From: Bacteroidales bacterium
GTDB lineage: Bacteria; Bacteroidota; Bacteroidia; Bacteroidales; UBA10428
Assembly (NCBI GenBank): GCA_046481675.1
Contig: JAWOJJ010000096.1
Location: 7,109 to 71,108, forward strand
Direction: 5' to 3'
Length of the DNA stretch: 64,000 bases
Shown in pieces: positions 43,957-45,760 of this stretch. Made by a program: the position numbers and the translations under genes. The notes below the pieces were generated by a model. That model did no database searches. It saw only the letters and a program-made list of their open reading frames with translations, and was not told the DNA's origin. The first letter of the stretch is position 1; each line of letters begins with the position of its first letter.

Positions 43957-44711
43957 TGATACAAGTCGATAACCTGGTTAAAACGTTCAACGGAGTCATG
44001 GTGCTCGATGACATCTCCGTTACCTTTGAAAAAGGAAAAACCAACCTGATTATCGGTAAAAGCGGTTCCGGAAAGACCGTGCTCATGAAATGCCTGGTAG
44101 GCCTGCATGAAATCGACGAAGGATCGGTGCTTTATAACGACCGTAATTTTGTGAAAATGAATTTCGACGAGCGAAAGGCCATACGCCGCGAAATCGGCAT
44201 GCTTTTCCAGGGCAGTGCACTGTTCGACTCGCTGAACGTGGAAGAAAACGTGATGTTCCCGCTAAACATGTTCACCCGTATGAGCCTTGAGGAAAAGCGC
44301 GATCGGACCAACAACTGCCTGAAAAGAGTGAACCTTACCGACGTGAATAAATTGTATCCCGGTGAAATCAGCGGAGGTATGAAAAAAAGAGTTGCCATAG
44401 CACGGGCCATTGTTGAAAATCCGCGCTATTTGTTTTGCGACGAACCCAATTCCGGTCTTGATCCCAAAACTGCCCTGGTTATCGACGATCTGATCAGCGA
44501 AATCACACACGAATTCAACATCACTACGGTGATCAATACACACGATATGAATTCGGTGATGGAGATCGGCGAGAAGGTGGTTTTTATACATGAAGGCCAT
44601 AAAGGCTGGGAAGGAACACGCGAAGGCATACTCGACAGTGACGACGACAACCTGAACGACTTTGTTTTTGCCTCTAGCTTTGCCAAAAAAATCAAGTCGC
44701 TTTCAAAATAG
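43956..44711 (+). CDS. mlaF: MlaF-family ABC ATP-binding protein
   Basis: GKSGSGKT, GMLFQGSALFDS, SGGMKKRVAIARA and DEP.SGLDP motifs. It is coupled to mlaE by a TGATG overlap. Confidence 0.9.
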   Translation: MIQVDNLVKTFNGVMVLDDISVTFEKGKTNLIIGKSGSGKTVLMKCLVGLHEIDEGSVLYNDRNFVKMNFDERKAIRREIGMLFQGSALFDSLNVEENVMFPLNMFTRMSLEEKRDRTNNCLKRVNLTDVNKLYPGEISGGMKKRVAIARAIVENPRYLFCDEPNSGLDPKTALVIDDLISEITHEFNITTVINTHDMNSVMEIGEKVVFIHEGHKGWEGTREGILDSDDDNLNDFVFASSFAKKIKSLSK

Positions 44712-44725
44712 TATAGCTGCTGCTC

Positions 44726-45340
44726 GTCATACTGAGCCTGCATGGCCGGAAGGCAGGTTTGTTGTATTGGCAATACATCGCAACATTGCATCCGGGAGCT
44801 TCGCCCCGAACCCCACTTCATTCTTTGTCTTGACACAAAGAACGAAGCAAGAAAAGTCAAGACAAAACGAACCCCCAGCTAGACCCGGCACGCCCTCTAC
44901 GTTTTGTCGGGCCCACCCACGGTGCTTATTGGTTAGCTTTGCTACTTAATGACCGATGTTCAATTTTCCATGTTTATTACTAAGAATTAGCACTTGCATG
45001 TTTATCTATCGTTGAGATTGGGCATTGTTGCAGCGCCCCTGAAGTAGTGGGATCCGCCTCTGAGAAAAGGCGTTAGAAAAATCAATTCACTGCAGGCCTG
45101 CCTGCCTGGCTAGGGCTGTGTGTGGTAGGCAGGCTTGCCTGCTTAACACATGCTTATAAGAAAATATGTTTGAGGCCGCTTCCTGCGGCCGAGTTTATTT
45201 TCTTGTGCTTTATGTGAATTGATTTTTAGCCTTTTATCAGCAGCGGCGGCTTTTTTGGTCACTTTTTGAGCTGTAGCAAAAAGTGACAAGCAGTAAGTAA
45301 AAATAATGTGCCTGTCATTAGCAGCCTGTCGAAGTGTGAC
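44726..45340. repeat. Composite structured non-coding element (MITE-like or ncRNA-like) flanked by REP-like units
   Basis: Terminal hairpins 44816-44847 and 45258-45287 each have an 8-nt loop complementary to a flanking segment. A long stem includes a perfect 14 bp (45077-45090/45214-45227) and there are nested hairpins. REP-like GTCATACTGAGCCTG (44726) and GTCATTAGCAGCCTGTCGAAGTGTGAC (45314) flank it. Confidence 0.7.
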
Positions 45341-45351
45341 TACCATATAGG

Positions 45352-45621: not shown

Positions 45622-45671
45622 CTTTTTTTTCTGCAAAGTTAAAAAAAAAGATATCAGCAACCACCATAGAG

Positions 45672-45760
45672 GCTTTTAGCTTTTAGCTTTTAGCTAACAG
45701 CTAATGGCTAATGGCCAACAGCTAATAGCCAACAGCTAATAGCTACCCGCTAATAGCTAC
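45672..45760. repeat. Fold-back heptamer array B (3 x GCTTTTA then ~9 x GCYAANR)
   Basis: gctttta x3 | gctaaca gctaatg gctaatg gccaaca gctaata gccaaca gctaata gctaccc gctaata gctac. Confidence 0.9.

Follow-up and report, generated by a model that had tools for sequence, protein, structure and literature searches.

A composite MITE-type repeat of uncultured Bacteroidales with putative pseudoknot-triplex domains at the outward ends of its modules

The ~470-base spacer between mlaF and the DUF4834 gene in the Bacteroidales contig analyzed here (the whole 64,000-nucleotide stretch is hereafter called the window) is one copy of a small, non-coding mobile DNA repeat. The initial annotation had placed two motifs here, one on the minus strand (44863 to 44816) and one on the plus strand (45246 to 45287), and the letters at both positions are identical to those it quoted. 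Its picture of a 470-bp element capped by twin motifs is, however, too simple, as two different modules form a composite and the outer right terminal repeat is absent from the window copy. Judged from the sequence, the interval is a head-to-head composite of a genus-level left module and a widespread right module, each of which ends, on its outward-running strand, in the same domain: a short segment named S1 is followed by a pyrimidine linker and then by a hairpin whose 3' arm is rich in purines.

The left outer terminal inverted repeat (44767..44814) contains a GC hairpin (44792-44808), is conserved among copies and is homologous to the 46-nt arms of a complete copy, L011 (arms at 1482-1527 and 1970-2015). 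It is followed by the left module, the remaining body of which leads into a variable AT-rich middle (44909..45053), the two together showing little conservation among copies or within the genus. Summed depth in metagenome runs was low over 44928-45015. Beyond the right module, the right tail (45288..45342) carries a REP-like hairpin (45314-45340) in place of the missing outer repeat and its GC hairpin; this alternative tail is common to the window copy and five others, and the other copies run into the GC hairpin. The element holds short open reading frames only, which the copies do not share, and neither tRNA nor tmRNA was found; copies differ by indels of 20, 22 and 34 nt.

Ten long copies (69-82% identity) and additional fragments were detected in the same genome, and the element matched 14 of the 24 other genomes of the genus. 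The genes flanking the copies are unrelated to each other. At the mlaF-DUF4834 locus itself, the spacer measures 18-90 nt and is devoid of any element match in 18 of 24 relatives, being filled only in this genome and in one relative. A complete copy from the genus is bounded by 46-nt terminal inverted repeat arms that are 76% complementary, of which the window copy keeps the left arm only. The earlier proposal that the motifs are structured ends of a non-autonomous mobile element is upheld, given a multi-copy non-coding repeat, a locus that is mostly empty in relatives, terminal inverted repeats in complete genus copies and a right module residing inside MITEs elsewhere. By these features (small, non-coding, dispersed, with terminal repeats) the element is a non-autonomous MITE-type repeat of uncultured Bacteroidales. 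The copy of one relative has flanks resembling two different copies of this genome, one on each side.

The right module has a much wider distribution. With an 81-position covariance model of its right end, we sampled the order at one genome per family and detected it in 19 of 151, up to 46 copies being present in one complete genome; it occurs either alone or as a passenger inside MITEs with different terminal repeats. Plasmid and phage collections gave no match to the module, and exact pattern searches of viral contigs returned 0 and 1 matches. Literature searches by keyword and motif string retrieved no description of the family, the motif-string matches being unrelated primers or constructs by their titles. 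In one MITE family carrying the right module, a 6-bp target duplication is perfect in 4 of 8 copies. A second such family, of which six copies were fetched and the ends located by script in five, shows a 9-bp duplication that is perfect in 2/5 and one mismatch off in another 2/5. For the genus family, the flanks are too diverged to fix the exact ends or a target duplication. As the pseudoknot domain lies internal to the terminal repeats in two MITE families, a role as transposase site is argued against.

As to the source of mobility, no autonomous insertion sequence with the same ends was found among end pairs spaced 1-3 kb apart in the relatives, whose assemblies are fragmented; these pairs enclosed ordinary or unknown open reading frames, an IS110-family gene and an unrelated DDE gene. 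In a relative, the left hairpin is interrupted by an IS110-family transposase gene, and in another genome a DDE_5 insertion sequence adjoins the module; insertion sequences within or next to copies have other ends, which in the DDE_5 element are unrelated. TnpB (PF07282) had 0 matches in this genome, and IS110 families were likewise unmatched there. Assignment to the IS200/IS605-derived elements (PATE) or to TnpB guide RNAs was rejected on the presence of terminal repeats and duplications and the absence of PF07282. Y1 (RAYT-like) transposase genes do exist in the genome; the repeats around them are other, unrelated sequences, which counts against the PATE assignment as well, and membership in a REP/REPIN-RAYT system was rejected on this ground.

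Within the left module, the hairpin (44816..44847, minus strand) consists of a 13-bp stem (44816-44828 with 44835-44847) and a 6-nt loop (44829-44834). The loop is complementary in full to the left S1 (44856..44861, minus strand), so that a pseudoknot would form, and the two are connected by a pyrimidine linker (44848..44855, minus strand), which is proposed to run over the purine arm as a third strand. Across 35 sequences, the stem is 95.8% paired with 6 covarying pairs, and the left motif overall reaches 91.3% as compared to 81.2% in shuffles, none of 500 being as high. The pseudoknot helix is 81.4% paired and contains two covarying pairs (CG in 22 and UA in 13 sequences; AU in 19, UA in 5 and GC in 2). 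Its central pairs (32-64 and 33-63) are standard in 21/35 sequences and fail in the other 14/35, all from two subfamilies, and all 6 pairs form in the subfamily of the window copy. Inward of the motif, 44861-44869 pairs with 44900-44908 around a variable insert (44861..44908); the arms of this helix are invariant among copies and thus offer no covariation. One A.C mismatch of the stem on the plus strand, found in 16/35 sequences, becomes G.U on the minus strand, and we favor the minus strand as the one on which the left module would fold, the evidence being such mismatches that turn into G.U there.

The right module (45054-45287, plus strand) spans 234 nt in the window copy and about 170-250 nt across copies. 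Its outermost pairing is a long-range closing helix (45054..45071 with 45229-45246), which is 94.6% paired and includes one pair that occurs as UA in 13, GC in 8, AU in 6 and CG in 2 sequences. More compensatory swaps are visible by eye in other lineages, the energy fold also predicts the helix, and both this prediction and the observed covariation speak for it over a local hairpin at 45055-45072. Enclosed by the closing helix, P1 (45077..45090 with 45214-45227) is 92.7% paired with 6 covarying pairs, so that the two 3' strands together occupy 45214..45246. The P2 hairpin (45092..45142) carries a palindromic insert specific to the window at about 45098-45134; it is 98.8% paired where present and is missing from short variants. 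P3 (45158..45204) is made of 45158-45165 paired with 45197-45204, a conserved internal loop and a variable tip hairpin (45174-45190). This tip resembles a terminator; its flanks pair as P3, and it sits within the covarying P1 and closing helix. In other lineages the sequence of P3 is wholly different, yet its pairing and loop motifs are kept, and more generally the internal-loop motifs of the module are conserved although the stems change completely.

The module ends in the right motif. Here the right S1 and the base following it (45246..45251, plus strand) would form a pseudoknot with the loop 45269-45274 through pairs that include two G.U, a T run (45252..45257) forms the linker and proposed third strand over 45278-45282, and the P4 hairpin (45258..45287) provides the stem (45258-45268 with 45277-45287). 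In 31 sequences less than 90% identical, 96.7% of the cells of the motif are paired as compared to 79.3% in shuffles (0/500 as high), with values of 97.6% and 9 covarying pairs for P4 and of 95.2% for the pseudoknot helix. The base that follows GCGGC pairs with the first base of the loop as UA in 13 sequences, AU in 8, CG in 4, GC in 3 and GU in 1, with other combinations in 2, and by eye the alignment displays double compensatory changes in the pseudoknot of three further lineages. The H-type pseudoknot described in the initial annotation is hence backed by covariation of the loop with the upstream segment.

For the whole right fold, 90.8% of the cells of 62 proposed pairs are paired (82.2% when shuffled) and 31 pairs have changed on both sides, a number reached in 0/500 shuffles, and slid controls attain at most 56.4%; these shuffle counts overstate independence, as the copies are related to each other. 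Single-sequence folding of the right motif alone gave a weak signal (z -1.15; 21/200 shuffles as good), and for the whole module the two strands both give far stronger folds than shuffled sequences do (z -7.92 and -9.82), as expected of any inverted repeat. Polarity is indicated by G.U pairs: one such pair of the right motif is kept in 31/31 sequences, and the end pair of P1 is G.U in 24/34, which points to the plus strand as the folding strand. By this comparison the right module folds on the plus strand. Searches against Rfam 15 returned 0 matches in 44712-45351 at E values up to 5 and 0 matches at gathering score over the whole window; SAM-II/SAM-V, preQ1, ribozymes, HEARO and group I/II introns were rejected as identities for want of a covariance-model match.

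To evaluate the linker as a third strand, linker/arm pairs were taken column-based from copies of both the left and the right motif, yielding 51 distinct combinations. In a single parallel register, 285 of the 292 purine positions have the matching base, T for A and C for G; among the 292 there are 25 G:C, 4 G:T and 3 A:C. The next-best fixed register, parallel or antiparallel, reaches 84.3%, and linkers shuffled 2000 times average 6.7 G:C without once reaching 25. This register is kept in stems that differ in where G occurs, and third-strand covariation is seen among the copies in the form of a fixed T/A and C/G correspondence, in agreement with the grammar proposed initially. A strict descriptor had 8 hits in the genome, every one a right-motif copy, and 0 in five block-shuffled genomes. 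The linker and the 5' arm moreover show a mirror-repeat design, and 32 of 34 linker C can also be explained by antiparallel Watson-Crick pairing with a free offset for each sequence. The linker probably forms a third strand that runs in parallel with the purine arm, with predicted U.A-U and C+.G-C triples; counting against a triplex, in our own reasoning, a linker of 6-8 nt across an 11-13-bp stem would be sterically tight.

The genomic context of the copies was also evaluated. The other copies are intergenic and occur in all orientations, and lone right modules likewise lack a preference, the upstream open reading frame being co-directional in 13 and opposite in 14 (based on crude calls). Because neither copies nor modules display an orientation preference, the reading of the motifs as 3'-end protectors of the convergent mlaF and DUF4834 transcripts gains nothing from context. 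Twenty entries for public sequencing runs contain part of the window, and among four runs that were aligned the only RNA run covers 44400-44546, in mlaF alone. No conserved Bacteroidetes-type promoter was seen in the alignments by eye, and no associated protein gene was found among the scanned neighbors of the copies. Replication and the folding strand run in the same direction in 42/46 copies (30/33 clusters) of one complete genome, as compared to 57.5% of long open reading frames, a bias of the kind shown by highly expressed RNA genes. When orientation was taken from local GC skew, the skews being weak, 6/17 copies were co-oriented in two other genomes and 5/15 in this one, showing no bias; five further genomes with too few copies were left out of this count.

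Direct support from the sequence comparisons thus exists for the repeat family, the insertion polymorphism, the helices, the pseudoknots, the linker/arm register and the plus polarity of the right module. To account for these features, we propose, at a probability of roughly 45%, that the element is a MITE-type composite repeat whose outward pseudoknot-triplex domains would act as stabilizers of RNA 3' ends. In this model both modules would act as RNA, the hairpin loop pairing back to S1 as an H-type pseudoknot and the linker serving as a parallel third strand. The resulting compact 3' domain would resist 3'-to-5' exonucleases, RNAs reading out of or through the element would gain a stable end, and MITEs would thereby carry a portable RNA-stabilizing or insulating module. 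The right module would represent an older, widespread closed multi-helix fold that also occurs on its own and is carried along in MITEs mobilized by other transposases. The most likely role that we infer for these domains is that of an RNA 3' cap resistant to nucleases. Several observations count against this model: the left pseudoknot is incomplete in 14/35 sequences, the left linker is interrupted by a 22-nt insert in some copies, and the closing helix and P1 can be read as internal inverted repeats for a DNA-binding protein. In addition, G.T pairs are tolerated in single-stranded DNA as well, which likewise counts against it.

Tentatively, the right module could instead be an undescribed class of structured RNA that spreads in Bacteroidales via MITEs or alone and whose copies would be expressed genes, the triple helix, similar to those of telomerase RNA and SAM-II, being part of a functional core for self-processing, recruitment of host or transposon proteins or 3'-end protection; we hold this to be possible and rather doubtful. 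It is unlikely that the modules are trans-acting or catalytic RNAs (a new large ncRNA or ribozyme class, or a mobility RNA) with the pseudoknot-triplex in the active core, in the manner of telomerase RNA or SAM-II-type folds, rather than as a mere 3' cap. The closed multi-helix fold with loop motifs that stay invariant while stems are wholly replaced, the occurrence of the right module across the order and as a passenger in unrelated MITEs, and the strong replication co-orientation in the complete genome all speak for such RNAs, but the lack of a match to Rfam families and of an associated protein gene among the scanned neighbors does not, and up to 46 copies per genome would be unusual for an RNA acting in trans. 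Formation of the fold in DNA that is single-stranded, be it during transfer or as template of the lagging strand, seems similarly improbable to us; there it would serve mobility or replication in the way hairpins serve HUH/Y1 enzymes (IS200/IS605, REP/RAYT), or provide a site of priming or pausing. In both motifs the carrying strand has its 3' end directed outward from the element, and the 42/46 bias places the folding strand on the lagging-strand template, a known bias of IS200/IS605, with Y1 transposase genes present in the genome. These genes are, however, flanked by unrelated repeats, TnpB was not found in this genome, and terminal inverted repeats with target duplications are typical of DDE transposition. 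Moreover, two MITE families have the domain in an internal position, the replication bias was not reproduced by the weak local skews elsewhere, and the invariant G.T would be a poor DNA pair. Pyrimidine-motif intrastrand triplexes are nonetheless described as forming in DNA too (PMC4666352).

A further reading takes the motifs as H-DNA-like repeats of the BoxC/PIT kind that would act on DNA only, through stalling, rearrangement or as landing pads for insertion sequences. The mirror-repeat design of linker and 5' arm is consistent with it, as are the IS110-family gene within the left hairpin of a relative, the DDE_5 insertion sequence adjoining the module, the relative's copy with flanks matching two different copies and the reported link of E. 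coli triplex repeats to genomic instability (PMC4666352). Given that it leaves the covarying pseudoknot, closing helix, P1, P3, the conserved loops and the strand-specific G.U unexplained, we give it a slim chance. Even less credence is due to decaying selfish repeats devoid of structural function, in which covariation would reflect subfamily descent and the need for alike inverted repeats. Kinship of the copies does inflate the shuffle significance, and the closing helix and P1 do look like inverted repeats; nevertheless, four Watson-Crick types at a single pseudoknot pair, compensatory changes (by eye) in three distant lineages, a third-strand register that stays constant over stems with G at varied positions and an architecture retained with unrelated stem sequences make this reading very improbable.

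Among known systems, the element resembles bacterial MITEs and other small repeats (Correia, ERIC, BOX/RUP, and a Porphyromonas gingivalis MITE presented in PMC4596501) in being small, non-coding, multi-copy and intergenic. Terminal inverted repeats and presence or absence among relatives are further MITE features, to which target duplications are added in the sister families with the right module. It differs from them in that the conserved part is an internal pseudoknot-triplex fold common to MITEs with different ends, and in that no cognate transposase was found for it. The REP/REPIN repeats of RAYT/Y1 systems are also dispersed hairpins, often in inverted doublets, and RAYT-like genes are present here, but the units described here are much larger, possess terminal repeats and are not the repeats that flank these genes.

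The BoxC/PIT/TM_ECO repeats (Holder et al. 2015, PMC4666352), known from Enterobacteria and Cyanobacteria, are likewise dispersed, with three consecutive blocks on one strand able to form a triplex, and the present motif also has three such blocks, the linker and the 5' arm being pyrimidine and the 3' arm purine. TM_ECO is a G/C-rich purine motif by its published consensus (PMC4666352), which is unrelated to the window sequence, and identity with it was rejected; the present motif is instead an A/T-rich pyrimidine motif (T.A-T, C+.G-C) with an additional loop-S1 pseudoknot inside a larger fold. Neither "Bacteroid" nor "pseudoknot" occurs in the main text of that article (PMC4666352).

Like known pseudoknot-triplex RNAs, the motif would place a U-rich first loop in the major groove of its second stem, which is rich in A-U, and its hairpin loop pairs with an upstream segment, whereas it belongs to a multi-copy, mobile repeat rather than to a single regulatory or enzymatic RNA and has no Rfam match. 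Its stem of 11-13 bp is presumably longer than those of such RNAs. In the ENE of PAN RNA and in MALAT1, a U-rich strand clamps an A-rich strand and thereby blocks 3' decay, which is the same 3'-protective role as the one proposed here. ENEs clamp the poly(A) tail in a U-rich internal loop, whereas the triplex predicted for the repeat would be intramolecular and lie within a pseudoknot. We know of no bacterial precedent for 3'-end protection by a triple helix.

MITE- or REP-like repeats and intrastrand triplex repeats are already known; pseudoknot-triplex ends are a design not described before for bacterial repeats. Dispersed repeats of bacteria are usually treated as simple palindromes, and the one reported here carries a covariation-backed pseudoknot and a predicted triple helix. 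Should it act as RNA, it would provide the first bacterial triple-helix 3' cap known to us or a new class of large ncRNA in an under-studied phylum. Should it act as DNA, intrastrand-triplex repeats would no longer be confined to Enterobacteria and Cyanobacteria, and a new design based on the pyrimidine motif would be added to them. The dozens of natural variants with G at different positions constitute a data set for the rules of triplex formation, and the repeat accounts for contig breaks and for spikes in depth where these organisms are assembled from metagenomes.

With high confidence, we interpret the element in the spacer between mlaF and the DUF4834 gene as a MITE-type, insertion-polymorphic composite repeat, for which bacterial MITEs are among the closest described kinds. 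The convergent mlaF-DUF4834 gene pair is conserved throughout the genus, and the empty site that the initial annotation had proposed to look for in relatives was found: 18 of 24 relatives' loci (loci with both genes and without element match) have a spacer of 18-90 nt, including that of a close relative (MlaF 94% identical) with 65 nt. Filled spacers were encountered only in this genome (640 nt) and in one other carrying a diverged copy (821 nt), and the spacers have diverged beyond the reading of exact junctions. Element matches are present in 14 of 24 other genomes of the genus, with both ends (~44791-44875 and ~45158-45289) kept and a variable middle. The assembly of this genome (153 contigs, completeness 93%) holds 10 further long copies of 69-82% identity, in addition to fragments, which lie between unrelated housekeeping genes in all gene orientations and differ by indels of 20, 22 and 34 nt; no shared ORF was seen across the copies. 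In four metagenome runs, summed contig depth at 44796-44927 and 45016-45290 exceeded the depth over neighbouring genes by a factor of ~5 to 100 that differed between runs, and was low over the element middle; in the single RNA run, coverage was restricted to mlaF. Complete copies carry 46-nt terminal inverted repeats, GC hairpin included. Of these, the window copy retains only the left (44767-44814); in place of the right it has an alternative tail common to five other copies.

Direct reading of the sequence retrieved both strings quoted in the initial annotation exactly as written. On the minus strand, the left motif (44863 to 44816) comprises an S1 segment (44856-44861, plus-strand coordinates) fully complementary to the left loop, a pyrimidine linker (44848-44855) and a 13-bp hairpin (44816-44847) with a 6-nt loop (44829-44834), whose single stem mismatch, A.C when read on the plus strand, is G.U on this one. 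The right motif is read on the plus strand: S1 and its next base (45246-45251) pair with positions 45269-45274 in the loop of the P4 hairpin (45258-45287), with two G.U pairs in the window copy, and a T run (45252-45256) separates S1 from the hairpin. Single-sequence folding of both motifs was not decisive (left hairpin, minus strand: -22.2 kcal/mol, z -4.78; right motif, plus strand: z -1.15, 21 of 200 shuffles equally good). In the Rfam search likewise suggested at the outset, the element had no match at E up to 5 and the whole window none at gathering score; a search for tRNA and tmRNA genes found none.

The right module (45054-45287) also occurs without the left module, both in this genome and in further assemblies of Bacteroidales, among them records named Marinifilum, Saccharicrinis and Prolixibacteraceae. 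Scanning with an exact pattern retrieved 82 stretches, two of which, from Chitinophagales, are without the remainder of the module, and a covariance model built on 81 positions at the module's 3' end matched 19 of 151 genomes sampled across the order (18 of 148 genera). Copy number reaches 46 in one complete genome and is zero in another complete genome of the same genus; in the collections of viral contigs, plasmids and phages that were searched, the module is essentially absent.

In a MAFFT alignment of 34 right-module sequences less than 90% identical, the 62 proposed pairs were paired in 90.8% of cases versus 82.2% in shuffles, with slid controls reaching at most 56.4%; some stretches of P3 and P4 are displaced by a single column in this alignment, which makes the percentages there underestimates. 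Thirty-one pairs were altered on both sides, a number reached in none of 500 shuffles. On the plus strand, a closing helix (45054-45071 with 45229-45246; 94.6% paired, one pair occurring as four Watson-Crick types) encloses P1 (45077-45090 with 45214-45227), an optional P2 and P3 (45158-45165 with 45197-45204), which has a conserved internal loop and a variable tip, followed by the pseudoknot and P4 as the last helices. G.U forms the end pair of P1 in 24 of 34 sequences and one pair of the pseudoknot in 31 of 31; such pairs would be C.A on the opposite strand, which identifies the plus strand as the one that folds. In other lineages, P1 and P3 have wholly different sequences with pairing and loop motifs kept. 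We hold with high confidence that the modules carry a conserved single-strand fold, and with equal confidence that its terminal part is an H-type pseudoknot having a mirror-repeat pyrimidine linker.

The helix of the right pseudoknot is 95.2% paired, and the pair of the base after GCGGC with the first loop base varies as UA 13, AU 8, CG 4, GC 3, GU 1 and other 2; in three distant lineages, altered S1 is matched by altered loop, as judged by eye in a model-based alignment of 68 matches. The left pseudoknot has two covarying pairs (CG 22/UA 13; AU 19/UA 5/GC 2), but its two central pairs are broken in 14 of 35 sequences, all from two subfamilies, and it is therefore solid only for the window's subfamily.

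For the proposed third strand, linker and purine arm were taken by column from the 68-match and left-motif alignments, giving 51 distinct combinations. In the parallel register placing linker base k over arm base k+1, 285 of 292 purine positions have the expected partner, T for A and C for G (G:C 25, G:T 4, A:C 3), compared with at most 84.3% in every other fixed register, parallel or antiparallel. G interruptions of the arm fall at lineage-specific positions and linker C tracks them; with linkers shuffled among sequences, G:C averaged 6.7 and none of 2000 shuffles reached 25. If each sequence is allowed its own offset, antiparallel Watson-Crick pairing likewise accounts for 32 of 34 linker C residues, because most arms are near-symmetric; a few asymmetric cases, judged by eye, fit the parallel reading alone. 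The triplex match is supported as a sequence correspondence, and the linker may physically act as third strand. A descriptor search of the kind initially recommended, run with strict settings (a stem of 9 bp or more, a 6-8-nt loop, 5 or more in-register triples, 6/6 pseudoknot pairs), found 8 sites in this genome and none in 5 block-shuffled genomes; each of the 8 is an element copy.

The right module also lies inside MITEs of two other genomes, whose terminal repeats are their own and mutually different. One family is flanked by an AT-rich duplication of 6 bp that is perfect in 4 of 8 copies. In the other the duplication is 9 bp; of 6 copies examined, 5 had ends that could be located, and among these it is perfect in two and has one mismatch in two. 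As the pseudoknot-triplex domain is internal in both families, it is not the end-recognition site of the transposase there. No autonomous partner was found for the element or the passenger MITE families; the RAYT genes of this genome were checked and rejected as partner, being unrelated to the element.

Single right modules showed no orientation preference relative to the upstream ORF (co-directional 13 versus 14, by crude stop-to-stop ORF calls). In G058, the one complete genome rich in copies, the origin falls near 2.5 Mb and the terminus near 0.2 Mb by GC skew. The folding strand is the one with leading-strand sequence in 42 of 46 right-end motif copies (30 of 33 clusters), and the motif changes strand cleanly at both inferred points. 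Long ORFs there are 57.5% co-oriented with replication (binomial P about 3e-5 for the copies against ORFs, on clusters). A similar bias was not seen in two other genomes (6/17) or in this one (5/15), where replichores were guessed from local skew, which is weak.

Invariant G.U pairs, conserved internal loops and a closed multi-helix fold, together with passenger status in unrelated MITEs and replication co-orientation in one genome, lead us to favour modules that would act at the RNA level, the terminal pseudoknot-triplex domain forming a putative nuclease-resistant 3' cap. This comes close to the second idea of the initial annotation, protection of the mlaF and DUF4834 transcript ends, except that the cap would be a property of the module and not of these transcripts in particular. 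The same conserved fold could belong to a catalytic or trans-acting RNA, which we consider unlikely, or be a structure of single-stranded DNA, to which we give a similarly low probability. A triplex hot spot at the DNA level only seems more doubtful still, and inert decay highly improbable.

Besides MITEs, the closest described kinds are pseudoknot triple helices like those of telomerase and SAM-II/V RNAs, and the intrastrand triplex repeats BoxC/PIT/TM_ECO. The motif of these repeats is G/C-rich, of purine type and without pseudoknot (PMC4666352), and the main text of that paper does not mention Bacteroidetes. We found no description of the element family in the literature searched; motifs of this sort may be listed, unannotated, in the supplementary tables or online database of that work.

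Insertion sequences use the element as target or neighbour. In a relative (G016), an IS110-family transposase gene (PF01548, PF02371) splits the left hairpin loop (L061, 1084-2719), indicating that the repeat serves as insertion target; at a second G016 site (C6:676141-677792) the hairpin appears likewise split, the matches to its halves lying ~1.57 kb apart. A G058 stretch (L208) contains a 2.4-kb tandem duplication. In each unit, one module copy (89% alike) precedes a DDE_5 insertion sequence (99-100% alike) that has inverted ends of its own; ~46-70 nt adjoining the module recur on both sides of this insertion sequence. The left flank of a relative's copy (L109) matches that of the C144 copy in this genome and its right flank that of the C69 copy, which suggests either that copies have recombined or that the assembly is chimeric here.

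A GC-rich palindrome (CCTGCC...GGCAGG, ~20-45 nt) occupies different sites in different copies (P2, P3 tip, right linker, after left S1, after the closing-helix strand; window 45098-45134 and 44737-44757; L036, L076, L093, L124) and looks like a separate mobile mini-hairpin or optional stem. A REP-like hairpin repeat (GTCAT.CTGAGCCTGTCGAAGT.TGAC type) stands beside many copies, also as inverted doublets (window 44726-44740 and 45314-45340; L011 1359-1419), with short matches dispersed across the genome. A tandem array of 7-bp units in the intergenic DNA upstream of the DUF4834 gene (45669-45760) gave weak, sub-threshold microRNA-like Rfam matches. Finally, three P4-like hairpins without S1 and T linker, on own contigs C114 (near 14300), C127 (near 450) and C144 (near 4170), lie ~40 nt outside the outer terminal repeat in conserved context, as if they were a further module beyond the element ends.
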